A DNA stretch of 32,000 nucleotides from an uncultured Syntrophales bacterium (GTDB lineage Bacteria > Desulfobacterota > Syntrophia > Syntrophales > JAAYKM01). The notes under the pieces are model-generated. The model was not told where the DNA came from. It was given only the letters and a program-made list of their open reading frames with translations, and made no database searches. Every line of letters starts with the position of its first letter. Positions within the stretch are counted from its first letter, which is position 1. The translations under genes and the position numbers were made by a program. This document shows, piece after piece, positions 4,831-26,924 of this stretch. The DNA lies in assembly GCA_964541005.1 (NCBI GenBank), contig CAZIPU010000001.1, positions 4,493 through 36,492 on the forward strand. The letters are read 5' to 3'.

Positions 4831-5550
4831 ATGGAATACAACCGAGCGGCCGTGGTGATTCCGGTCTACAATCATGAAGAAAAAGTGGCTGAGGTCATTA
4901 GGCAGGCGATGTGCCTCCTTCTGCCCATTTACGTGGTCGACGACGGATCCACCGACGGCACTTACGAACGGATCAAGGGCATCCCGGAAATCACCGTCCT
5001 GCGCCATGAGAAAAACCTGGGAAAGGGCGCTGCACTGATGACGGGATTCGCCGCGGCGGCTCCCACGGCGGAATGGGCCATCACCATCGATGCCGACGGC
5101 CAGCATAATCCGGAAGACAGTTGGAACCTGTTCCAAGCGGTTGAGAAGGGGACACGGCCCATCGTGATCGGCTGCCGGCAGGGTATGGATCATCGGCATG
5201 TTCCGTTTGCAAGCCGTTTCGGGCGGGGATTCTCCAATTTCTGGGTGCGGATGTCCGGCGGACCCGTTCTCACGGACAGCCAAAGCGGTTTCCGTCTCTA
5301 TCCCCTGCCCGAGATACTGTACATGCCCGTCGAGTCTCAGCGTTTTCAGTTCGAGGTGGAAATCCTGGCCCGGGCCGGATGGAAGGGCATGCCGGTTCTG
5401 GAGGCCCCGGTCGGCGTTACTTATGCGCCCAAGCAGGAAAGGGTCTCCCATTACCGGGGTTTTGTCGATTTCTTCCGAAATGCCGCCACTTTCAGCCGTC
5501 TGATCATTCTGAGACGGTTTATCCTGCCTTTCACCCGGTTCAGAAATTGA
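4831..5550 (+). CDS. Family 2 glycosyltransferase (GT-A fold)
   Basis: 239 aa. AVVIPVYNHEEKV, VVDDGSTDGT, ITIDADGQHNPED (DxD). No C-terminal TM domain. The stop overlaps the next start (TGATG). Confidence 0.9.
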   Translation: MEYNRAAVVIPVYNHEEKVAEVIRQAMCLLLPIYVVDDGSTDGTYERIKGIPEITVLRHEKNLGKGAALMTGFAAAAPTAEWAITIDADGQHNPEDSWNLFQAVEKGTRPIVIGCRQGMDHRHVPFASRFGRGFSNFWVRMSGGPVLTDSQSGFRLYPLPEILYMPVESQRFQFEVEILARAGWKGMPVLEAPVGVTYAPKQERVSHYRGFVDFFRNAATFSRLIILRRFILPFTRFRN

Positions 5551-8500
5551 TGAGAGCGCATCCGTATCTTTCCCGGTGGATTCTGGCCGGCGTCATCCTC
5601 ATGATCGTCGCGGGGCTTTTTGCCGCCGGTGTTCATCGCCTCAGATTCGACACCGATGTCCTCAATGCCCTTCCCCAGGATGACCCGGTTCTGGTCGACG
5701 GCCGCTATGTTTTTCTCCATCACCCCATTCAGGACCGCATCGTGGTCGATGTCGGCCAGGCCGGAGGGGATGTGGAACGGCTGGTCGGAGCAGCCGGACT
5801 GATCGAACGGCGCATGCGGGAAAGCGGCCTCTTCCGGAAAGTCGGTCTTGAATCCATGGGCCGCCTTTTCCCGGAACTTCTGCGCCACACGGTGGATCAT
5901 CTTCCCGCTCTTTTCGATTCGGACGAGTTGGAAAGGCTGATTGCGCCCTTGCTGGCTCCGGAAAGGGTCAGGCAGGCCCTTGAGGGCCACATTCAATCCT
6001 TCGGCAATCTGGAAGGAATCGGTCAGGCATCCCTCATCGCCGGCGACCCCCTGGGTTTCCGAAATCTTATCCTGGCCCGTCTGTCCAATCTCGCCCCCGC
6101 GAAAGGGGCAACGATCCATAAAGGTCGGCTCCTCTCTGCGGACAGGAAACATCTTCTCATCCTGGCCGAACCCGTCAGTTCCGGAATGGATACCCGTTTT
6201 GCCCTTAAAATCACGACCTTCATGGAAAAAATCGCCCGGGAAGTCAACGCCGTTTACGGTCCGGAAAGCGGTCTTGTCCTGACGCCCGTCGGAGCATACC
6301 GGGCCGCCCTCGACAACGAAACGAATGCCAAGAAAAACGTCCACCGGGCGGTGACTTTTTCCACCGTGGCCATTGCGTTGCTGCTGCTGGTCTGTTTTCC
6401 CCGGCCCCTGATCGGTCTGCTGGCCCTTCTGCCGGCCTTTGCGGGTACGATGACGGCATTTTTCGTCTATTCCCTTTTCCATGCCACCATTTCCCTCATG
6501 GCGGTCGGCTTCGGCGGGGCGATCATCTCCTTTACCGTCGATTACGGCCTGACCTATCTGCTTTTTCTCGACCGTCCTTATGAGACGCGGGGCATGGACG
6601 CCACGAAAGAAGTCTGGAACCTGGGCCTTCTGGCCATGATGACCACGGCCGTCAGTTTCGCCTTCCTGACCTTTTCAGGATTTCCCGCCCTGGTGGAAAT
6701 CGGCCAGTTTGCCGCCCTGGGGGTGCTGTTTACGTATATCTTCGTCCATCTCGTTTTCCCCCTGGTCTTTCCCGTGATACCGCCGGCAAAAAGGCCGCCT
6801 CTGCTCCCGCTTCAGGCTTTCGTCACCCGCCTGGCCTCTTCCGGATCAATGTGGAAAGTCTATGCGGCCGCCGCTCTGGGGCTGTTCATGCTCTTTTTCG
6901 CCCGCCCGGAGTTTCATATCAACCCGGCGGCGATGAATACCGTAACGCCGGAAACGATGCAGGCGGAACAGCTTGTCCGGAATGTCTGGGGCGATATTTT
7001 CAGCAAGGTCTACCTCCTGGTGGAGGGCGAAAATTCCCGGGATCTGCAGCGGAAATGCGATCGTCTGTCCGTGATGCTGGATCGGGAAGTGAAGGCACGG
7101 CGCCTGTCCCAGGTCTTTGTCCCTTCGATGATTTTCCCCGGGGAGGACCGGGCCCGGACAAATCTTGCCGCCTGGGAACAATTCTGGACCCCTCAGCGGC
7201 GGGACGAATTGAAAAGGACCATCGGGACGGCCGCAGCGCCCCTCGGGTTTTCAACCGCGGCCTTCGATCCATTCTGGAAAAGGCTCGGGGAAAAGCATCC
7301 TGCGGACATCGAGATGCCGGAGCGGTTCTCCGACCTGCTGGGTATCTCTACCAACCGGGATCGCTCCCGCCGGTTCTTCGTCGCCACCCTTACCCCCGGC
7401 CCCGCCTACAATGGAGAGGCTTTTTTCCGGAGTTTTTCCGGGATTGCGGGAACACGGGTGTTTGATCCCGATCTCTTCGGCAAAAGGCTCGGTTCGGTCC
7501 TCATGTCGGCCTTCATCCGCATGGCGGCGATTGTAGGGATTGTCTCCATTTTTGTCGCGTTCATTGTTTTTCTCGACTGGAAGCTGACCCTGATCGGCCT
7601 GCTGCCGACCCTGTTCGCCATGATCTGTACCCTGGGGACCCTGAATCTCATGGGAGAACCCCTGGGAATTCCCGTTGTCATGGTTTCCGTCGTCGTCATC
7701 GGGATGGGAACGGACTACGCCCTGTACATCGCCCGCTCCTTCCAGCGGTATTTCCGGGACGACCATCCCTCCATGGGCCTTGTCCGCACGTCCGTGTTCC
7801 TTTCCTTTGCCACGACTTCTCTCGGATTCGGCGTCCTGGCCCTGTCGGATAACGCCCTGCTGAAAAACGCGGGTCTCGGTCTCGCCCTGGGAATCGGTTA
7901 TTCCTTCCTGGGGGCCGTGATGATTGCACCGCCGCTTCTAAAACGGGTTTTCGTTCCCGTCACCTTACCCGAAGAGAAAGTAGTCCCGGGATCGGAAAGG
8001 CACTTTGCACGGGTTCTTGACCGTTACCGCCATATGGAGGCCTATCCCCGGCTTTTCGCACGTTTCAAAATCCTCATCGATCCCATGTTTCCTCGCCTGG
8101 CGGATTTCCTGCAGTCGCCGAAAACGATCATCGATATCGGAACGGGCTTCGGTATTCCCGCAACATGGCTGCTGGAATTGCACCCTCAAGCCAGGCTCTA
8201 CGGAATCGAACCGAACCGGAAGCGGGTTGAAGTGGCCTCCAGGGTGATCGGGACGCGCGGCGATGTGCAGGTGGGATGCGCCCCTGACATACCCGCAATC
8301 CCGGGACAGGCCGACACGGCGCTCCTGATCGATATGACTCATATGATTGCGGACGACGAATTGCGACTTACCCTGAAGCGGATCCGCGAGAAACTGACAT
8401 CCGACGGGACGGTCATCATCCGGGCAACGGTTCACAGGGAGCACACCTCCCCCTGGAAACGGCGGATCGAAGCAATGAAAAACAGGGCGATGAAATGCCT

Positions 8501-8642
8501 GTCCCGCTTTCGGACGGAAAAAGAGATCTGTGGCATGCTGTCGGTATCCGGTTTTGACGTGATTCAAACGGAGCCGAGCACCCCGGGTCATGAGGAGGTG
8601 TGGTTTGTCGCACGGGTCAGAGAAACAAATAAGGCGGGATAG
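5550..8642 (+). CDS. MMPL/RND-superfamily lipid exporter (APE ApeM-like) fused to a C-terminal class I SAM-dependent methyltransferase
   Basis: Track ORF 5379..8642. I place the start at ATG 5550 (MRAHPYLSRWILAGVILMIV...), in frame and overlapping the GT2 stop. There are two 5-6-helix hydrophobic bundles (about aa 330-480 and 700-860 of the track ORF) with large loops before each. The tail has IIDIGTGFGIPATWLL (motif I GxGxG), LYGIEPN and TALLIDMTH. Confidence 0.8.
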   Translation: MRAHPYLSRWILAGVILMIVAGLFAAGVHRLRFDTDVLNALPQDDPVLVDGRYVFLHHPIQDRIVVDVGQAGGDVERLVGAAGLIERRMRESGLFRKVGLESMGRLFPELLRHTVDHLPALFDSDELERLIAPLLAPERVRQALEGHIQSFGNLEGIGQASLIAGDPLGFRNLILARLSNLAPAKGATIHKGRLLSADRKHLLILAEPVSSGMDTRFALKITTFMEKIAREVNAVYGPESGLVLTPVGAYRAALDNETNAKKNVHRAVTFSTVAIALLLLVCFPRPLIGLLALLPAFAGTMTAFFVYSLFHATISLMAVGFGGAIISFTVDYGLTYLLFLDRPYETRGMDATKEVWNLGLLAMMTTAVSFAFLTFSGFPALVEIGQFAALGVLFTYIFVHLVFPLVFPVIPPAKRPPLLPLQAFVTRLASSGSMWKVYAAAALGLFMLFFARPEFHINPAAMNTVTPETMQAEQLVRNVWGDIFSKVYLLVEGENSRDLQRKCDRLSVMLDREVKARRLSQVFVPSMIFPGEDRARTNLAAWEQFWTPQRRDELKRTIGTAAAPLGFSTAAFDPFWKRLGEKHPADIEMPERFSDLLGISTNRDRSRRFFVATLTPGPAYNGEAFFRSFSGIAGTRVFDPDLFGKRLGSVLMSAFIRMAAIVGIVSIFVAFIVFLDWKLTLIGLLPTLFAMICTLGTLNLMGEPLGIPVVMVSVVVIGMGTDYALYIARSFQRYFRDDHPSMGLVRTSVFLSFATTSLGFGVLALSDNALLKNAGLGLALGIGYSFLGAVMIAPPLLKRVFVPVTLPEEKVVPGSERHFARVLDRYRHMEAYPRLFARFKILIDPMFPRLADFLQSPKTIIDIGTGFGIPATWLLELHPQARLYGIEPNRKRVEVASRVIGTRGDVQVGCAPDIPAIPGQADTALLIDMTHMIADDELRLTLKRIREKLTSDGTVIIRATVHREHTSPWKRRIEAMKNRAMKCLSRFRTEKEICGMLSVSGFDVIQTEPSTPGHEEVWFVARVRETNKAG

Positions 8643-16229: not shown

Positions 16230-16670
16230 ATGGGCGCTCCTAAACAAGGATATTCTGCTTTGTGCGCCATGGATATGATGGAACAATGGCATCGCATATA
16301 TCATGAAACCGATCCGTCGGGTTCCGGAGTGATGATCAGGGCCTTGGCGCAAAGCGGATCCCCCTGGTTTTCCGGTCATTTCCCCGGAGAGCCGATTCTG
16401 CCGGGCATTGCCATCCTGTCCATGGTTAAGGAGGCCGTCCTGGCGGAGGAATCCCGCAAGGGAAGGCGTATTCGGATTCATGGAATCAACAGGGTTCGCT
16501 TCCGTCTGCCCGTCCGACCGGATGACCTGCTGACCCTGGCGTTTTCCATGTCCGGACAGGAAGGGAAGCCCGTTTATTCATTCAAGGTATCCCTGGACGG
16601 GAAAACGGTGTGCAACGGGATGATCGCCGCCGGGCTTCTGCCGGAGACGCTTCCGGCTTCCGATGGCTGA
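16230..16670 (+). CDS. FabZ/FabA-like hot-dog 3-hydroxyacyl-ACP dehydratase (APE ApeI/ApeP-like)
   Basis: 146 aa. WFSGHFPGEPILPGIAILSMVKEA is the FabZ catalytic His motif. The start is uncertain (ATG 16230 or ATG about 16270), and neither has a clear Shine-Dalgarno. Confidence 0.75.
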   Translation: MGAPKQGYSALCAMDMMEQWHRIYHETDPSGSGVMIRALAQSGSPWFSGHFPGEPILPGIAILSMVKEAVLAEESRKGRRIRIHGINRVRFRLPVRPDDLLTLAFSMSGQEGKPVYSFKVSLDGKTVCNGMIAAGLLPETLPASDG

Positions 16671-16755
16671 AAGGTGGAATAAAAGGACTTGAATGACCGG
16701 AAGGTCTTTTATAGATTCAAAGTGCAGTCATTTTAACGAGGAGGAATGGATACCC

Positions 16756-17016
16756 GTGAGTGCGGAAAACAAGGCCCTGATCATTCGCGTCGCCGAGATC
16801 GTCATTACCGAATTGAAGTTGCAGGACATTACGCCCGATACATTTGATCCCGATCTCGATCTTGTGGATGAACTGGGGGTGGACAGCATGGATCTGGCTA
16901 CGGTGGTCCTGGTTCTGCAGGACGAATATGGGATCACCATCGACGAGGACGACTATCCGAAATTGAGAAACATCCGCCTGATCGCAGAATATGTCGAACA
17001 GAAGCAGCGGGCGTAA
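16756..17016 (+). CDS. Acyl carrier protein (ACP-3)
   Basis: Track ORF 16693..17016. LVDELGVDSMDLATVVLVLQDEYG. I favour GTG 16756 (GAGGAGGA about 10 nt upstream), giving an 86-aa ACP. ATG 16693 is possible. Confidence 0.8.
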   Translation: MSAENKALIIRVAEIVITELKLQDITPDTFDPDLDLVDELGVDSMDLATVVLVLQDEYGITIDEDDYPKLRNIRLIAEYVEQKQRA

Positions 17017-18127
17017 TGATAAAACATTCGTGAGTACGACAGACGCCATAACCCTCCCAGGCGAGGAGAACGGGAAAAGAAAATGGAAGTTTTCAGAACT
17101 TCTGGCCGATCCGGAGGTGTCTTCACGATGGGAGAAGGTGCGTAAGTATTTCTTTCTCCGGGAATCGACGTATGACATGACGAATCGCTGCAACATTCGC
17201 TGCGACGGCTGTTATTACTATGAAGGGGAAAAACAGTTTGCCGTCGACAGCCGTGATCCCGAAGCGTGGCGCAAACTGATGCAGGACGAGAAATTCAGGG
17301 GGATCACCTATGTCGTTCTGGCCGGCGCGGAGCCTTCCCTGGTTCCGGAACTGCTTGAGGTCTGCTTCCGGGAAATGCCTCTGGGCAGCATCGCCACCAA
17401 CGGTTACGTCCGGATTCCCGAGAGCGTAGGTTACCGGATCCATATTTCCGTCTGGGGTAATGATGAAACGAGTGCCCGCGTCCGGGGTGCCAAAAACCTC
17501 CTGAAACGGCAGATCGAGAATTACGCCGGCGATTCCCGGGCCGTTTTTGTCTACACCTTCACCCGGGATAACATTGACGAAGTTTACGAGGTCATGGAAA
17601 CGATCGCTTCCCGGGATTGCCGGATGACCTTCAACATGTTTTCCTCCCCCGTAGGCTATACGGGAGGCCTTCGGCACGATACGGCATCGCTGCTCCGGGC
17701 CAGGCAAACGATGATGGATATCCTGACAAGGTACCCGGAGAACATCCTGTTTTCGCCTTATAACGTGGTGGCCCATACGGAGCCATATGGTCTCCATACC
17801 CTCTATGGGTGTTCTTACCCGAGGATGAACGGTTCCACCGATATCGGCCTGGGCCGATCCTTCCGCCAGTACCGGTCGGATCTTTCCTGGGATCGAAGCG
17901 TGGCCTGCTGCGTACCCGATACGGACTGCGAAGACTGCCGGCACTATGCTTCCGGCAGTGCCGTGGTGACGGCCCGCCTCTACCGCCATGTGACCGATCC
18001 GGAAACATTCCGTTCCTGGCTGGACTATGTGGATACCTATCTGGCCGTCTGGGTAATGGGTTACGATAAGGGAGAAAACCTCTGCCGTACATTGATCGAA
18101 CCGCCCGGGAAACCGGACTCAATTTGA
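16991..18127 (+). CDS. Radical SAM enzyme, no B12 domain, C-terminal Cys-rich motif (paralog A)
   Basis: 378 aa. STYDMTNRCNIRCDGCYYY (CxxxCxxC, about nt 17189-17212), VVLAGAEPSL, C-terminal VACCVPDTDCEDCRHY. The start could be ATG 16991 (overlapping ACP-3) or GTG 17030. Confidence 0.85.
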   Translation: MSNRSSGRNDKTFVSTTDAITLPGEENGKRKWKFSELLADPEVSSRWEKVRKYFFLRESTYDMTNRCNIRCDGCYYYEGEKQFAVDSRDPEAWRKLMQDEKFRGITYVVLAGAEPSLVPELLEVCFREMPLGSIATNGYVRIPESVGYRIHISVWGNDETSARVRGAKNLLKRQIENYAGDSRAVFVYTFTRDNIDEVYEVMETIASRDCRMTFNMFSSPVGYTGGLRHDTASLLRARQTMMDILTRYPENILFSPYNVVAHTEPYGLHTLYGCSYPRMNGSTDIGLGRSFRQYRSDLSWDRSVACCVPDTDCEDCRHYASGSAVVTARLYRHVTDPETFRSWLDYVDTYLAVWVMGYDKGENLCRTLIEPPGKPDSI

Positions 18128-18185
18128 AAAACAGGGTTGTCGTTTCCATTCTGGGGGACGACGGGGGGAAAACGAGAAAAATTAT

Positions 18186-19184
18186 ATGAAAACGGTCAGT
18201 TCCTTACTTGATGAAGCCTGGCATGAGCGCTACCGGAAAATCGCCAGCCTGAATATCCGCAGTTCCATCTACGATGTGACCAACCGCTGTAACCTGCGCT
18301 GCAAGGGGTGTTTCTTCTTTTCCTCCAATGAGCACGAAGCCGCTCAGGAGGAGATGGATATAAACAAGTGGTATGACTTTATCGGCCGGGAGAAGGCGCG
18401 GGGAGTCAACCTGGCCATCCTGATCGGCGGTGAACCGACCCTGTACCTGGACCGGGTTGAAGCCTTTTATCGGCAGCTTCCCACGTACTGCGCCACCAAC
18501 GGGCAGATCAAAATCCCCCGCGACCGCTTCCCTGACATGATGGTGGGCATCTCCCTGTGGGGGGACGAGGAAGACGAGAAAACCCTCCGGGGGAAAGACA
18601 CGTTCGCCGTTTCCCGGCGACATTACGAAGGTGACCCCCACACCTACTATCTTTACACGATCACGGCAAAACAGGTCGGACGCATCGAATCGGTCGTCCG
18701 TAAAATAGCCGATGCGGGTCTTAAGGTCCATTTCCAGCTTCTGACGAACGATGAACAGGTGGACGGATTCTCCTGGAGCGAGGACAAGCTGCGCGACATT
18801 CGAAGTGAAATGGATGAAATGCTTGACCGCTATCCCCGGACGGTTGTTTCCTGCCGGTATTATCACGAAATCATCACCACGGGGAAAATGATGGGACGGC
18901 CTTTCGGCTGGAACGAGTGCCCCTCCGTGACGGAACAACTGGATACGCGGAATCCGCAACCCAAAAGACTCATCCGGTTCATCCGCTGGGCTTCCGATCT
19001 GAAGACCATGCACCGGTGCTGCACCTCCGAAACCCGGGACTGTTCGACCTGCAAGGACGGGGCGGCCCACATGAGCTGGGTCATGGTCAACAAGAGGGAT
19101 CATCTGCGTTCGACCCAAGACATCCAGAACTGGATCGAAGTCTACGAAATGTTTGCCAAACTGTACCGTTTTATCCCCTGGTAG
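18186..19184 (+). CDS. Radical SAM enzyme, no B12 domain, C-terminal Cys-rich motif (paralog B)
   Basis: 332 aa. SIYDVTNRCNLRCKGCFFF (about nt 18288-18311), ILIGGEPTL, C-terminal HRCCTSETRDCSTCKDG. Alignable by eye with the preceding gene along its length. Confidence 0.85.
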   Translation: MKTVSSLLDEAWHERYRKIASLNIRSSIYDVTNRCNLRCKGCFFFSSNEHEAAQEEMDINKWYDFIGREKARGVNLAILIGGEPTLYLDRVEAFYRQLPTYCATNGQIKIPRDRFPDMMVGISLWGDEEDEKTLRGKDTFAVSRRHYEGDPHTYYLYTITAKQVGRIESVVRKIADAGLKVHFQLLTNDEQVDGFSWSEDKLRDIRSEMDEMLDRYPRTVVSCRYYHEIITTGKMMGRPFGWNECPSVTEQLDTRNPQPKRLIRFIRWASDLKTMHRCCTSETRDCSTCKDGAAHMSWVMVNKRDHLRSTQDIQNWIEVYEMFAKLYRFIPW

Positions 19185-21768: not shown

Positions 21769-22248
21769 ATGAAACCGAAACCGTTCAGGCCTGAGCTGCT
21801 CTACAAGAATTCCTGTTATGTCCGGGATCTTGAAACGGGATTTGTCTGGCACCGCTGTTCCCAGCGGACCCTGTACGCGGATACGGACCGCTCCGCCGTG
21901 GTCTACCACGCCAACTACCTGCGTTATTTCGAGTTCGGCCGGGCCTCTCTCATGCGGGACGCGGCCTATCCCTACCGGGAAATCGAGGAAAGCGGCTATG
22001 TCTATCCCATTATCGAACTGGGAATCACCTTCTGCGAGCCCCTGCGGTATGATGACCCCATGTTTGTCCACACCCGCCCGGCGGAGATCGAGCGGGTGAA
22101 ACTTCGATTTGACTACACGATCACCCATGCGGAATCGGGAGCGATTGTCTGTAAGGGATTCACAAGGCACTGCGCCTTAAATGCCCAGGGAAGACCCGTG
22201 GCAATCGATCCGAAAACGGTACACCTATGGAAAACATTTCCGGAGTAG
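21769..22248 (+). CDS. 4HBT/YbgC-type hot-dog acyl thioesterase (APE ApeK-like)
   Basis: 159 aa. YADTDRSAVVYHANYLRYFEFGR is the 4HBT catalytic Asp region. The ATG abuts the TAG of KS-3. Confidence 0.85.
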   Translation: MKPKPFRPELLYKNSCYVRDLETGFVWHRCSQRTLYADTDRSAVVYHANYLRYFEFGRASLMRDAAYPYREIEESGYVYPIIELGITFCEPLRYDDPMFVHTRPAEIERVKLRFDYTITHAESGAIVCKGFTRHCALNAQGRPVAIDPKTVHLWKTFPE

Positions 22249-22415
22249 ATTGGAAACAAGAATGCAAAAGGCGGAAGCAGGAAGGTGAAGGGGATGAGGC
22301 AGGTGAGAGAAGGGAAAGGATGTCGGCTGAAAGTTTCGAGACTTGATTGTCCGGCAAAAGACGCTTTAATTTGTGCTGTCAAAAGGAAAGAGCATTCGGG
22401 GGGATTGGAACCGAC

Positions 22416-22682
22416 ATGACACGTGAGGAAATCATTGATCACATCCTTCAGATCTTCCGGAAGGAATTCGAGATCGAAAACCCGGGGCTGGATGACAATC
22501 TTCGGGAAGAATACGAATTTGACAGTATCGATGCCGTGGAGTTGCTCCTCCAGATCGAAAAGATGCTGGGTTCCGAACTGACCCAGGAGGAAAAAAAGCA
22601 GGCCATGGAGATTCGGACCATCAACCAGGTCTGTGACTATATCGAGGGCCTCGCTCGTGCGAGGCAGGGTGTTTCAAGGTAA
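22416..22682 (+). CDS. Acyl carrier protein (ACP-4)
   Basis: Track ORF 22347..22682. I place the start at ATG 22416 (MTREEIIDHILQIF...), GGGGGA about 10 nt upstream. EYEFDSIDAVELLLQIEKMLG. Confidence 0.85.
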   Translation: MTREEIIDHILQIFRKEFEIENPGLDDNLREEYEFDSIDAVELLLQIEKMLGSELTQEEKKQAMEIRTINQVCDYIEGLARARQGVSR

Positions 22683-22757
22683 ATTGACGGCGGGATCCCC
22701 CCCTGCTCCACTTCGGGGAGGAATACGATCCCGCCGGTTCTGAATAGCGGACGTTCC

Positions 22758-23999
22758 ATGGAAAGAAGAGTTGTCATTACGGCGTGCTCCGCCATCACCC
22801 CCATCGGGCGGACCAAGGCGGAGATGCTCCACTGCCTGGCAAACGGCATCTCGGGAGTCAGACCCCTGAAAGAGGACGGCCTGTTGTCTTCTTTCATTCA
22901 TTCGAAGGTTTTCGGCACCGTCGATTATCCGATAACCTACGACTTCAGGCGTTCGTTCCGGAAGACGATGGGACCCGTGGCCTACTATGCCTGCCAGGTG
23001 GCGAAGGAAACCCTCGAAAGCTCGGGGCTCGATCAGAACTTTATCACCTCCGGCCGCCTGGGCGTCGCCTTCGGATCGACCCACGGCAGCCCCACGGTGC
23101 AGCGGGAAATATACAAGACCTTTTTCGGCGGCACCCAGAGTGACGTGAGGTCCATCGGCGCCGTCGATTACCTGAAATCCATGGTCCACACCACGGCGGT
23201 CAACATCACGAAGATGTTCGGCATCACGGGACGGGTCATTTCATCTTCCACGGCCTGCACGACGAGCAGCCAGTCCATCGGTTTCGGCTACGAGATGATC
23301 AAGTACGGCATGCAGGACGCCATGCTCTGCGGCGGTGCCGACGAATACGATACGACGACCGTCGCCGTTTTCGATAACCTCCTTGCCTGTTCGACGGCCT
23401 TCAACGACACGCCGGAGCGGACCCCCCGCCCGTTCGATGTGCAGCGGGACGGCCTGGTGGTGGGCGAAGGCGCCGGGGCGGTGCTCCTGGAAGAATACGA
23501 GCATGCCCGGAGAAGGGGCGCCGGGATCATGGGGGAGATCATCGGTTTTTCCTGCAACAACAACGGCGGCGACCTGATTCTGCCCAATCTTCATGGCATC
23601 ACCGAAACGATCCGGATCGGCCTGCGGGATGCGGGCATATCCGCCGGCGATGTCGATTTCATCAGCGCCCACGCCACGGGGACTAAAATGGGAGACGTCA
23701 TTGAGGCCCAGGCGATCCACAATGTTTACGGCGATCGTCCGCCCGTTATCGGTTTGAAGAGTTACATGGGCCACACCATGGGATCCTGCGGGGCCATCGA
23801 AACGATTATCCTGCTCCACCTGATGCGGGAAGGCTTTATCGTGCCGACCCTCAACTTAACGGAAGTCGACGAACGTTGCGCCATGATCCGTCACAGCCGC
23901 GAGGTGAAGGATTATCCGGTCCGGATCGCTGCGGTCCAGAATTTCGCCTTTGGCGGTGTGAACACGAACTTGTTCATTAGAAAAATAACCCAAGAGTGA
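22758..23999 (+). CDS. Beta-ketoacyl-ACP synthase, KAS I/II type (KS-4)
   Basis: 413 aa. RRVVITACSAITPIG, SSSTACTTSSQSIG (Cys), ISAHATGTKMGD (His), LKSYMGHTMGSCGAIE (His), NFAFGGVNTNLFI. Confidence 0.9.
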   Translation: MERRVVITACSAITPIGRTKAEMLHCLANGISGVRPLKEDGLLSSFIHSKVFGTVDYPITYDFRRSFRKTMGPVAYYACQVAKETLESSGLDQNFITSGRLGVAFGSTHGSPTVQREIYKTFFGGTQSDVRSIGAVDYLKSMVHTTAVNITKMFGITGRVISSSTACTTSSQSIGFGYEMIKYGMQDAMLCGGADEYDTTTVAVFDNLLACSTAFNDTPERTPRPFDVQRDGLVVGEGAGAVLLEEYEHARRRGAGIMGEIIGFSCNNNGGDLILPNLHGITETIRIGLRDAGISAGDVDFISAHATGTKMGDVIEAQAIHNVYGDRPPVIGLKSYMGHTMGSCGAIETIILLHLMREGFIVPTLNLTEVDERCAMIRHSREVKDYPVRIAAVQNFAFGGVNTNLFIRKITQE

Positions 24000-24017
24000 C
24001 TGATTCGGTGGCGCAAA

Positions 24018-24779
24018 ATGGTGAAAATCATGAATACCTTTATGGATTTTACCATTACGACAATCCTGTGGACATACTATATCGCCGGTTTTATCCTCGT
24101 CTTTTCCCCTTTTTATTTGTTCTCTTTTTTTCGCCGGGATAAAAAGGAAGCCGGCTTCCAGAAATTAAATCACATCTTCTTTAATAGTTTCTTCTCCCTT
24201 CTTCGAATCCTCGTTCCCAGGGTGACCTGGCGGGTGTCCGACGAGGTCCGCGCCATCCGATCCTCCGTCATCATTGCAAATCATCTTTCCTTTCTCGACC
24301 CGATCCTGTTCGTTTCCCTGTTTCCCCGGCAGAAGACCGTTGTCAAGAAAGATTATTTCCGCGTCCCCGTTTTCGGTTGGATCCTCAAAACATCCGGCTA
24401 TATTCCTGCCTTCACGGGAGATTCCGGAGCGGAGATTCTCCTTGAACAGGTAGAAAGAATGAAAGCCTACCTGGCGGAAGGGGGAAATCTGTTCATGTTC
24501 CCCGAGGGAACCCGCAGCCGCGACGGAAGGATCGGCTCCTTCGACCGGGGTGCCTTCCGCATCGCAAAGTTCTGCGATGTCCCCATCCGCGTCCTCGTGA
24601 TCCGCAATACCGGCCGGCTTTATCCCCCGGGGCGCATCCTCTTCAATACCTGCGAGCGTTTCACCATTTCCGTTGAAGCGGGGGGAACCCTGATGCCCGA
24701 TTACAAGGAGGAGACGATCTCGCTTTCCGCCGTCATGGCGGAGGCGCGAAAGCTGATGGAAGAGAGGACCAACCCGTGA
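24018..24779 (+). CDS. 1-acyl-sn-glycerol-3-phosphate acyltransferase family (PlsC-like LPLAT)
   Basis: 253 aa. N-terminal TM helix, IIANHLSFLDPILF (HX4D), FMFPEGTRSRDGRI (block III). Confidence 0.85.
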   Translation: MVKIMNTFMDFTITTILWTYYIAGFILVFSPFYLFSFFRRDKKEAGFQKLNHIFFNSFFSLLRILVPRVTWRVSDEVRAIRSSVIIANHLSFLDPILFVSLFPRQKTVVKKDYFRVPVFGWILKTSGYIPAFTGDSGAEILLEQVERMKAYLAEGGNLFMFPEGTRSRDGRIGSFDRGAFRIAKFCDVPIRVLVIRNTGRLYPPGRILFNTCERFTISVEAGGTLMPDYKEETISLSAVMAEARKLMEERTNP

Positions 24780-26308
24780 TACAGACGCCTCCCCGTTTGG
24801 AACAGGAAATGGACGGCGCATGGATTCGTTATCCCCGGACCCTTTCCGTCTCGGCCTACCTCTGGGACCACCATTTCATGGGCAAAACGATTTTCCCCGC
24901 CGTCGAAATTCTCCAGGGCCTCGCCGCCAGCGTGCTGGATCACAGACCGGGAACAAAGGTAACGTCCTTACGGGGAGCTTCCTTCGACCGGTTTCTGGAA
25001 CTCGCTGAAAACGATCGTGAACATACCGTATTCCACGATCTGAAAGCGGACGGAAAAGGCCTGGTGTCCGCACGGCTGGTAACCGTTTCTCCGTCCGGGA
25101 AAGCAGGCATCCTGCGGGAAAAGGTCCATGCCGCGGTCGATTTTACGGCACCGGTGAAGGACGACGCGGAATTTCCCATGGATCTGGCGGCGTCAGTGGA
25201 AGGAATCGGTTACCGGATCCCTGCGGAGCAACTCTACCGGAAACTCATTCCTTTCGGCCCCGCCTACCGGAACCTTCAAGGTGATGTGATCCTGACGGAA
25301 AACGGCGGGGTGGCACAGGTCCGGGCTGCGGAATACCCGGCTCCCACGGTGCCCCTGGGTTCGACCTTTCCCTTCGACGGAATCATGCATATCGCCTGTG
25401 CCTGGAGTCAACGTTTTCACGGAATTGTCGCTTTTCCCGTCGGCTTCGACGAAAGGATCGTTCCGATCCCGACCATTACGGGAGAAACCTATTTCTGCCG
25501 GGTTTTGCCCGTTTCCGTCATGAAAGAAGAACTGACTTTCGACATGGCGATTTACGATCCGGAAGGAAGGATAAGGGAATTCATCCGGGGCTTGAAGATG
25601 AAGGACGTTTCGGGAGGACGCGTCAGGCCGCCCGGATGGGTCCGGTTCGACGGCACCGATTCCCTGGCCACGATCCGGAAGCACTGCGAGGCGCTCTGTG
25701 TCATCGAGGAGACGGCCCTCGCCGGTTTTGCCGCCGATGCCCTGACGGCCGGAGAGAGGGCCCGTTTCGACCGGATGGGGGTTCGCAGGAGGAAAAGCTA
25801 CCTGATGGGACGCCTGGTCCTTAAAACCCTGGCGCGAAAACTGGCGGGACGGGACCGGCAAACCCCGTCATCGGCGATCCACACCATGATGGAGGACGGC
25901 ATCAGGCCGTTCTGCCCCGATTTGGCCGGCCGGGGTCCTGTTTTTTGTTCCCTTTCCCACGACCGGCGCTTCGCCGTGGCCGCCGGGGGGGCGGAACCGA
26001 TGGGGATCGATGTGGAAGTCCTCTCCGGACGGGCCCTGAAGGCGAGGCACCTCTACATGGGAGAAGCGGAGTCAAACCTGGCCGACCGGTCTTCCCTGGG
26101 CGTCCTGGCCGCAGCGTTGCGGGTCTGGTCCATCAAGGAAGGGGTGACGAAGGTCCTCAATATGCCCATCGGAGAAGCCTGGAAAAGGGTCAGGGTCCTG
26201 GATATCGGGTTTCACGAGAGCCGCCTGACCGTGGACGTCGAACGTTTTACGGCATTCCACGATACGGTGGACGATCATGTATTTACCCTGGTGAAGAGGG
26301 AATCATGA
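24776..26308 (+). CDS. Fusion: PKS-type double-hot-dog dehydratase + Sfp-type 4'-phosphopantetheinyl transferase
   Basis: 510 aa, GTG start in a GTGA overlap with the PlsC-like stop. N-part: LWDHHFMGKTIFPAVEIL (HxxxGxxxxP) and FPFDGIMHIACAW (DxxxH/Q). C-part: RKSYLMGRLVLK, PMGIDVEVL, VWSIKEGVTKVL (W/F-S-x-K-E), the PPTase motifs. Confidence 0.75.
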   Translation: MIQTPPRLEQEMDGAWIRYPRTLSVSAYLWDHHFMGKTIFPAVEILQGLAASVLDHRPGTKVTSLRGASFDRFLELAENDREHTVFHDLKADGKGLVSARLVTVSPSGKAGILREKVHAAVDFTAPVKDDAEFPMDLAASVEGIGYRIPAEQLYRKLIPFGPAYRNLQGDVILTENGGVAQVRAAEYPAPTVPLGSTFPFDGIMHIACAWSQRFHGIVAFPVGFDERIVPIPTITGETYFCRVLPVSVMKEELTFDMAIYDPEGRIREFIRGLKMKDVSGGRVRPPGWVRFDGTDSLATIRKHCEALCVIEETALAGFAADALTAGERARFDRMGVRRRKSYLMGRLVLKTLARKLAGRDRQTPSSAIHTMMEDGIRPFCPDLAGRGPVFCSLSHDRRFAVAAGGAEPMGIDVEVLSGRALKARHLYMGEAESNLADRSSLGVLAAALRVWSIKEGVTKVLNMPIGEAWKRVRVLDIGFHESRLTVDVERFTAFHDTVDDHVFTLVKRES

Positions 26309-26342: not shown

Positions 26343-26924
26343 ATGATCCCCTTTGTCGTCACCATGGCCGGGGCCTACCTGGCGGGCTCCGTAAACTTTG
26401 CCATTATACTGTTCGCCTCCCTGGGGAAAGAGGACCCCAGGTCCCGCTTCAGCGGTAACGCCGGAGTGACCAACGTCCGGCGCCAGGCGGGGCTCGCCTG
26501 GGCTGTCCTGGTCCTTTTGCTCGATTTGATCCGGGCGCTGGGCGTTTCCTTTATCGCCCTCTATTTCCTGCCGAAAGAGATGGTGCCCTGGGTGGGCCTG
26601 GCCCTGGTGCTCGGCAACCGCTTTCCCTGCTTCCACGGTTTCCGGGGGGGGAAGGGAGTGGCCGCGTATCTCGGTTTTACCATCCCCGTCGCCCCTTATG
26701 CGGCAGTCCTGTCCGCCCTTGTCTGGGTGGGCATTTACGGAATCGCCCGCAGGCCCTTTATTGCCTCCTTCGGTATGGTCGCCGTCCTTGCAGCAGGCAC
26801 GGCCACTGTTTTCGGATATGATGCAACGGCAGCAACGGGCACCGTGGCGACGGCGCTTTTGATTTATTTCAACCACCGGGAGAACATGAAGGAACTTTTT
26901 GGGAAAAAATCAGGAAGGACCTGA
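26343..26924 (+). CDS. plsY: PlsY-family acyl-phosphate:glycerol-3-phosphate acyltransferase (divergent copy)
   Basis: 193 aa polytopic membrane protein. FSGNAGVTNVRR (compare canonical GSGNxGATN), LGNRFPCFHGFRGGKGVAAYLG (compare GHxFPxF..GGKGVAT), C-terminal YFNHRENMKELF. Confidence 0.8.
   Translation: MIPFVVTMAGAYLAGSVNFAIILFASLGKEDPRSRFSGNAGVTNVRRQAGLAWAVLVLLLDLIRALGVSFIALYFLPKEMVPWVGLALVLGNRFPCFHGFRGGKGVAAYLGFTIPVAPYAAVLSALVWVGIYGIARRPFIASFGMVAVLAAGTATVFGYDATAATGTVATALLIYFNHRENMKELFGKKSGRT

Follow-up and report, generated by a model that had tools for sequence, protein, structure and literature searches.

The 32,000-nucleotide (nt) window analysed here, from contig CAZIPU010000001.1 of an uncultured Syntrophales bacterium, encoded a 510-aa protein in which a polyketide synthase (PKS)-type dehydratase (DH) was joined to an Sfp-type phosphopantetheinyl transferase (PPTase). 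This DH-PPTase was likely a bifunctional protein whose two domains, a dehydratase and a PPTase that primes acyl carrier proteins (ACPs), form a stand-alone unit within a lipid or polyene synthase of dissociated (type II-like) organisation. Five observations formed the basis of this reading, namely the two folds, the preservation of the catalytic motifs in each half, the conservation of the fusion and of its operon position, the occurrence of DH-only orthologs in the same operon slot, and the complementarity between the fusion and the PPTase gene acpS across genomes.

The fusion was a genuine, conserved feature in which both halves looked catalytic, and it was a variant of a known arrangement that introduced no new principle. 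New here were the complementarity with AcpS and the DH-only orthologs found in the same slot. The stand-alone DH-PPTase family was widespread in anaerobic bacteria yet unstudied: literature searches for it found no description, and databases annotated it in generic terms only.

The two domains and their predicted catalytic residues

The DH-PPTase gene began with a GTG codon that shared a GTGA overlap with the stop of the upstream PlsC-like gene, and a PlsY-like gene began 35 nt past its own stop. A preliminary description of this DNA had quoted four motifs, and all of them were found in the 510-aa translation: HHFMGKTIFP at residues 32-41, DGIMH at 201-205, GIDVE at 410-414 and WSIKEGVTK at 451-459. 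Conservation was followed in an alignment (A1) of 38 family sequences with 36-84% identity to the window protein. The gene and its parts were the following.

24776-26308, + strand: DH-PPTase gene (open frame of 510 aa; full-length homologs)
24809-25645, + strand: PKS-type double-hotdog DH domain, residues ~12-290 (profile against PDB, Foldseek, and stand-alone 290-aa orthologs ending at the same boundary)
24869-24898, + strand: HxxxGxxxxP motif (H32-P41) with the predicted catalytic His32 (invariant in A1)
25235-25261, + strand: Y154...PFGPAY, counterpart of GYxYGPxF of PKS DHs (Y154, F160 and G161 invariant in A1)
25376-25390, + strand: DxxxH motif (D201-H205) with the predicted catalytic Asp201 (A1 and 222 relatives)
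25601-25690, + strand: interdomain linker, residues ~276-305 (M275, P286 and W288 invariant in A1)
25691-26305, + strand: Sfp-type PPTase domain, residues ~306-510, with 4PPT_N and ACPS subdomains (Pfam, family profile, and EntD, AcpT and HetI models)
26003-26017, + strand: GIDVE (410-414), Mg2+-binding Asp/Glu equivalent to D107/E109 of Sfp (alignment to Sfp)
26126-26152, + strand: WSIKEGVTK (451-459), equivalent to W147...E151...K155 of Sfp (alignment to Sfp)

The family profile supported both domains. When the members of A1 were scanned individually with Pfam, ACPS was detected in 38/38, PS-DH in 28/38 (best E 1.6e-14), PKS_DH_N in 20/38 and 4PPT_N in 18/38. An AlphaFold2 model built on A1 reached a pLDDT of 92.6 and a pTM of 0.90, and the latter value indicated a defined arrangement of the DH and PPTase domains in the model. 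The earlier assignment of a PKS-type double-hotdog DH followed by an Sfp-type PPTase was upheld by the family profile, the per-member Pfam scans and the AlphaFold/Foldseek comparison.

Positions ~10-272 of the family profile matched crystal structures of PKS DHs (5hqw, 5hst, CurF, CurK and PksJ) with E values from 4e-10 to 2e-7. In the Foldseek search with the AlphaFold model, the MlnB DH was the best match (E 1e-14, target-normalised TM 0.76-0.77), and further DH matches included CurF/J/K, a MAS-like PKS and PpsC (down to E 1e-11, target-normalised TM 0.65-0.77); the best 50 matches of the full model were all DH domains, so that the PPTase half was without a structural match of its own among them. 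By the model, the DH half had the double hot-dog fold of PKS DHs. Its conserved columns, invariant or at least 90% conserved in A1, were D31, H32, G36, P41, Y154, F160, G161, D201, H205, A219, F220 and P221. Among 170 fused and 52 DH-only relatives, position 32 was His in 168/170 and 52/52, respectively, while D201 and Y154 were each kept in 170/170 and 52/52. H205 was replaced by Gln in one fused and four DH-only relatives and was His in all others. It was most likely, given these sequences, that the DH domain dehydrates 3-hydroxyacyl-ACP.

The PPTase half was followed in the same way. The family profile aligned to Sfp residues 9-161 (E 5e-8), and this half of the family matched the EntD model in 36/38 members and also the AcpT and HetI models. 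Pfam placed 4PPT_N at residues 328-403 and ACPS at residues 409-485 of the window protein, corresponding to a two-subdomain pseudo-dimer. Residues S392, H395, G410, D412, W451, K454, E455 and K459 were invariant in A1, and E414 was conserved in at least 90% of its sequences; S392 and H395 represented the His region of the SH(S/D)-type motif of Sfp-type PPTases. By these alignments the C-terminal half was a complete Sfp-type (group II) PPTase, for which conversion of apo- to holo-ACP is predicted. Residue conservation showed purifying selection on both active sites.

Distribution of the fusion, DH-only orthologs and AcpS

A homology search retrieved 135 proteins, nearly all 495-530 aa long, that aligned end to end at 37-99% identity; their hosts were Syntrophales, Desulfobacterales and Spirochaetota metagenome-assembled genomes (MAGs). 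In total, more than 170 full-length fused proteins were collected. A relative of the family was encoded in 351 genomes when one genome per species was scanned, and 387 clusters at 50% identity (E<=1e-30) came from a profile search run exhaustively over 1.8 billion representatives. On a 5.98-Mb contig, the PS-DH+ACPS protein predicted by independent gene calls was 497 aa long, and its gene overlapped the neighbour on either side by 4 nt.

This distribution left a negligible chance that the fusion was an assembly or sequencing artefact of two adjacent genes, as the preliminary description had allowed with its suggestion of a sequencing error at the junction. Relatives did contain DH genes on their own and, in a few cases, PPTase homologs on their own, and one low-quality MAG (G121) had its DH and PPTase halves in different frames. 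However, the artefact was refuted by the more than 170 full-length fused sequences, which came from many assemblies and from long-read contigs; the interdomain linker held invariant residues, and the ketosynthase (KS) genes next door in G121 were likewise split by frameshifts. The same description had taken orthologs encoded as separate genes as a possible sign of such an error. DH-only orthologs were indeed common, but they reflected loss or gain of a domain and not an error in the window.

In the G121 locus itself (L092, G121:C15:1-17000, from a 70%-complete MAG), fragmentation affected the deacetylase gene and both KS genes as well as each half of the DH-PPTase. These split genes looked like assembly frameshift errors, with no real gene fission.

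The family profile matched 64 of the 151 genomes of this order that we searched: about 22 had the full fusion, about 38 were DH-only and three had the PPTase half only. In the DH-only genomes, profile positions 2-288 were matched with E values from 1e-76 to 1e-124, and the frames ended at ~290 aa. Similarly, many of the matches listed from the exhaustive profile search were stand-alone proteins 280-300 aa long that covered positions 2-286 end to end. Six DH-only genomes carried the stand-alone DH in the identical operon slot, with the order ...KS-KS-TE-DH-PlsY (TE, thioesterase) or ...PlsC-(B12-rSAM-like)-DH-PlsY (rSAM, radical SAM). In a FastTree phylogeny of the DH domains from the 170 fused and 52 DH-only sequences retrieved, the two forms interleaved with ~22 state changes under midpoint rooting, the position of the root being uncertain. 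This tree suggested that the PPTase domain was repeatedly lost or gained. With a stand-alone DH filling the same slot in many relatives, the DH was the constant component of the family and the PPTase an addition that varied.

Three genomes (G018, G083 and G042; loci L088, L089 and L090) had stand-alone homologs of the PPTase half with 33-34% identity, located away from the module. Two of these three lay within ~6 kb of another lipid gene set, consisting of a polysaccharide deacetylase, PlsY and a FabZ-like DH.

The presence of an AcpS-type gene, counted wherever a PF01648 match covered 85 or more model positions, was tabulated over the same 151 genomes. Such a gene was present in 38/38 DH-only genomes, 5/22 fused genomes, 1/3 genomes with the PPTase half only and 78/87 genomes with neither form. 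Fisher's exact test for fused against DH-only genomes gave p = 7e-11, a value that overstates independence because the genomes were related and mostly MAGs. The fused genomes without AcpS were spread over at least eight families. At the protein level, the AcpS of a relative (L095:365-760) found its counterpart in 5/5 control genomes (E 1e-36 to 1e-45), while the same query gave no match in five fused genomes that were 92-100% complete, and none in G000, the genome of the window. No AcpS-type gene (~130 aa) was found in G000, where the only two PF01648 matches were the fusion and a 249-aa PPTase-like protein on contig C62.

A second PPTase of ~230-250 aa was present in most genomes of the order, G000 included, with or without AcpS or the fusion. 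The usual inventory was therefore about two PPTases: the second PPTase was accompanied by AcpS in DH-only genomes and by the fusion in fused ones. In G100, a 99% complete genome of 20 contigs, the fusion was the sole detectable PPTase, and neither AcpS nor a second PPTase was found. This gene distribution was suggestive, although not proof, that the fused Sfp-type domain substitutes for AcpS and does not merely serve its cluster. The second PPTase of G000 (L001:1414-2163) matched PF01648 only at residues 30-90, and its gene overlapped a PlsC-like gene.

Proposed role of the fusion and its alternatives

We infer the substrates, the dehydratase activity, the ACPs that are primed and the pathway product in the following scheme. 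The neighbouring KS pair would extend the chain, and housekeeping FabG would supply keto-reduction, a step assigned to it because the window encoded no ketoreductase (KR). During extension the DH domain would use its His32/Asp201 dyad to convert 3-hydroxyacyl-ACP into 2-enoyl-ACP, working beside a FabA/ApeI-like DH, a 4HBT thioesterase and a radical SAM pair. The PPTase domain would move phosphopantetheine from CoA onto the apo-ACPs of the cluster. Where AcpS was missing, as in G000 as assembled, it would probably also prime the housekeeping fatty-acid ACP (AcpP). The pathway may yield an acyl chain of unsaturated or polyene type that enters glycerolipid via PlsC and PlsY.

A number of points weighed against this scheme. 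Both enzymatic activities were assigned from sequence and model across the whole family. Taken as a single sequence, the window protein stayed below the Pfam gathering scores (24 of the required 25 bits for ACPS, E 0.0095 for PKS_DH_N and E 0.013 for 4PPT_N; in the DH test with PS-DH/PKS_DH_N, 16.3 bits against a cut-off of 27), and a single-sequence NCBIfam scan gave a weak EntD match only; family profiles were used because these matches were sub-threshold. No KR, enoyl reductase (ER) or malonyl-CoA:ACP transacylase (MAT) was found among the genes of the 32,000-nt window, so those steps, and with them the substrate of the DH, would have to come from the housekeeping type II fatty acid synthase (FAS II). 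With respect to AcpS, the genomes compared were related, G000 was only 88% complete, five fused genomes retained the gene, and the second PPTase could be the housekeeping enzyme. Additionally, G027, a 98% complete genome from the genus of the window, had no match to the fusion profile, no AcpS-type match and one weak PF01648 match; either the locus was unassembled in this genome or the second PPTase suffices alone.

In a different reading of the PPTase, both halves are catalytic but the PPTase is strictly dedicated to its pathway, the second PPTase of ~240 aa primes the housekeeping ACP, and the AcpS/fusion pattern is a phylogenetic coincidence. We considered this possible but rather doubtful. 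It would fit the presence of the second PPTase in G000, G005, G024, G125 and G131, its occurrence as the only PPTase in G027, the AcpS genes still carried by five fused genomes, and the embedding of the fusion in an operon with four ACPs. On the other hand, the total of PPTase genes was steady at about two per genome, with either AcpS or the fusion beside the second PPTase, the complementarity recurred in at least eight families, and G100 lacked both AcpS and the second PPTase in spite of its 99% completeness. The preliminary description had proposed a dedicated PPTase for the four cluster ACPs. Priming of these ACPs was kept in our scheme, but a purely dedicated role was probably too narrow since the fusion and AcpS were largely complementary across genomes.

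With regard to the DH half, it was improbable that its His/Asp dyad serves enoyl isomerisation, double-bond shifting, cyclisation or product release in place of dehydration. Its structural neighbours did include the isomerising GphF DH1 (6mbh) and the ambruticin dehydratase-cyclase DH (5o15/5o16), and the FabA/ApeI-like DH of the module could already perform plain dehydration. However, every canonical DH motif was intact, the best structure and sequence matches were ordinary dehydrating DHs, and PUFA (polyunsaturated fatty acid) synthases likewise pair a PKS-type DH with FabA-type DHs, both of which dehydrate (PMC9667614). Far less probable still was a non-catalytic DH-like half that acts as an ACP-docking or scaffold domain for the PPTase, an alternative raised in the preliminary description. 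Inactive PKS domains with scaffold roles are known, but His32, Asp201 and Tyr154 were 99-100% conserved in the 170 fused and 52 stand-alone sequences. Moreover, many genomes had this domain in the fusion's operon slot as a free protein of 290 aa lacking a PPTase, an arrangement in which docking of a PPTase would make no sense. The interleaved tree together with the equal catalytic conservation of both forms was a strong argument against the DH as a mere PPTase-docking module.

Returning to the bifunctional enzyme, a wider hypothesis can be put forward tentatively, and we thought it more doubtful than the scheme itself. In many Syntrophales and related anaerobes, the DH-fused PPTase may have displaced AcpS as the essential holo-ACP synthase. 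All ACP priming, that of the housekeeping fatty-acid ACP included, would then be tied to the dehydratase of a dissociated PUFA- or polyene-like pathway of the 'ladderane-type'. The fusion might have been kept as it makes the accessory operon indispensable or channels fresh holo-ACP.

Operon context and relation to known systems

The window contained a large lipid/polyketide-like operon with five KS-family genes, four ACPs and two dehydratases. The operon started with a FabH-like β-ketoacyl-ACP synthase III (KAS III), ACP-1, a GT2 glycosyltransferase, a 1087-aa protein with a C-terminal methyltransferase, an LpxL-like acyltransferase and ACP-2. These were followed by a fusion resembling a KS and a chain length factor (KS-CLF-like), a CrtI-like oxidoreductase, a B12-radical SAM protein, a polysaccharide deacetylase, the FabA/ApeI-like DH and ACP-3. 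Next came two radical SAM proteins, two FabF-like KSs, the 4HBT thioesterase, ACP-4, KS-4, PlsC, the DH-PPTase and PlsY, and the order ended with a protein of unknown function, a KAS III-like protein, a BtrH-like protein and an ABC exporter. Synteny was counted by tblastn of the window proteins against 80 related loci, with the following results for the neighbours of the fusion.

16230-17016, + strand: FabA/ApeI-like single-hotdog DH (16230-16670) and ACP-3 (16693-17016), syntenic in relatives
16991-19184, + strand: radical SAM pair of the conserved module, in 52/80 loci (count limited by contig ends)
19194-21768, + strand: FabF-like KS pair of the conserved module, in 69-71/80 loci
21769-22248, + strand: 4HBT/YbgC-type hot-dog thioesterase, conserved upstream partner, upstream in 68/80 loci
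22347-24779, + strand: block of ACP-4, KS-4 and PlsC-like acyltransferase, between TE and DH-PPTase in Syntrophales relatives only
26343-26924, + strand: PlsY-like glycerol-3-phosphate acyltransferase, frequent downstream partner, downstream in 37/80 loci

The fusion was a core member of a conserved module with the order FabZ-like DH, ACP, rSAM, rSAM, KS, KS, TE, DH-PPTase and often PlsY. The thioesterase gene abutted the fusion in most loci, and in Desulfobacterales and Spirochaetota its end was the exact start of the fusion gene. In one locus (L093), the PlsY gene overlapped the stop codon of the fusion.

A DH followed by a PPTase is known from enediyne PKSs (PKSEs). CalE8 consists of KS, acyltransferase (AT), ACP, KR, DH and PPTase domains and has the hot-dog thioesterase CalE7 as its partner (PMC3107222), and in a related Rhodococcus system the PPTase and the TE are split onto a second protein (PMC11563203). 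The preliminary description had named no described architecture of the DH-PPTase kind, but the domain order itself is known at the C-terminus of PKSEs. Similar to the enediyne systems (CalE8, SgcE and DynE8, with the thioesterases CalE7 and SgcE10), the family had a DH and then an Sfp-type PPTase on one chain, a 4HBT-type hot-dog thioesterase encoded next to it (here upstream in most loci) and a PPTase that primes the ACP of its own pathway (here predicted). Unlike these systems, it was a free didomain of 510 aa in a type II-like operon with separate KS, ACP and DH genes, and there was no KS-AT-ACP-KR on the chain. Thus, the DH-PPTase family was not a PKSE; the features in which it was compared with PKSEs were the domain order and the thioesterase neighbour. 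The best 150 hits listed from the exhaustive profile search all belonged to the family itself. No PKSE DH or PPTase structure was among the PDB matches of the family profile or the best 50 of Foldseek. A tblastn search of the family against plasmids gave no match.

In PUFA synthases, cis double bonds arise through FabA-like DHs, while 2-trans-enoyl-ACP is the product of a PKS-like DH (PMC9667614). By analogy, the possible division of labour between the DH-PPTase and the FabA/ApeI-like DH resembled that of these enzymes. The DH half of 5/38 members aligned weakly (24-36 bits, best E 8.4e-10) to positions ~2300-2564 of the 2582-position PfaA model TIGR02813, corresponding to its C-terminal PKS-type DH; the window protein had no match to this model in the NCBIfam scan. 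In common with PUFA synthases (PfaA DH and PfaE PPTase), the cluster had a FabA-like DH, a KS pair, a hot-dog TE and an Sfp-type PPTase. In contrast to them, all parts were discrete proteins, no PfaD-type ER or MAT was found in the window, and the window had radical SAM, CrtI-like and B12-rSAM genes that Pfa clusters are without.

Rattray et al. 2009 reported 'ladderane-like' FAS II clusters in anammox bacteria and Desulfotalea psychrophila and proposed a novel anaerobic pathway to PUFA or polyunsaturated hydrocarbons (PMC2649909). The cluster in the window was of this 'ladderane-like' type. It shared with the published clusters a TIGR04072 B12-rSAM protein, a CrtI-like oxidoreductase, multiple FabF paralogs and extra ACPs, and its B12-radical SAM protein scored 391 bits against the cut-off of 360 of NCBIfam TIGR04072 (rSAM_ladder_B12). 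No cluster-encoded PPTase or PKS-type DH was mentioned in PMC2649909, PMC10139942 or 10.64898/2026.05.19.726425.

Ladderane-like clusters of anaerobes have been known since 2009. Heterologous work on them depends on how several unusual ACPs are primed, and the DH-PPTase is an obvious candidate for this role. It also supplies a PKS-type dehydratase that was missing from the published cluster descriptions examined. In dissociated form, the family seemed to mirror the DH-PPTase end of enediyne/PUFA-type synthases, which bears on the assembly of megasynthases.

Use of an Sfp-type enzyme for general priming has a counterpart in PcpS of Pseudomonas aeruginosa, a single-domain Sfp-type PPTase that acts as the sole/housekeeping PPTase. 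Like PcpS-like PPTases, the fused domain would stand in for AcpS and act on primary as well as secondary carrier proteins, as judged here from gene distribution alone. In contrast to PcpS, it was fused to a predicted catalytic dehydratase inside a lipid operon. If the AcpS/fusion complementarity is real, an essential enzyme would have undergone non-orthologous displacement, its place being taken by a domain that had become fused to a protein of an accessory lipid operon.

Two further features of these loci were observed. In several Syntrophales relatives (L083:7735-8940, L091:7903-8940, L010, L011, L021 and L023), a distant B12-radical-SAM-like gene was located directly upstream of the DH or DH-PPTase gene. 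These proteins were 21-24% identical to the TIGR04072 protein of the window, which had no such gene at that position. The 1087-aa open reading frame at 5379-8642 (+ strand) had a C-terminal methyltransferase as its only Pfam match, and precomputed MMPL and methyltransferase matches existed for its 1074-aa homolog (L093:435-3659). Going by these matches, the protein may be a lipid exporter of the MMPL type that carries a fused SAM methyltransferase. A homolog was found near the module in 19/80 loci.

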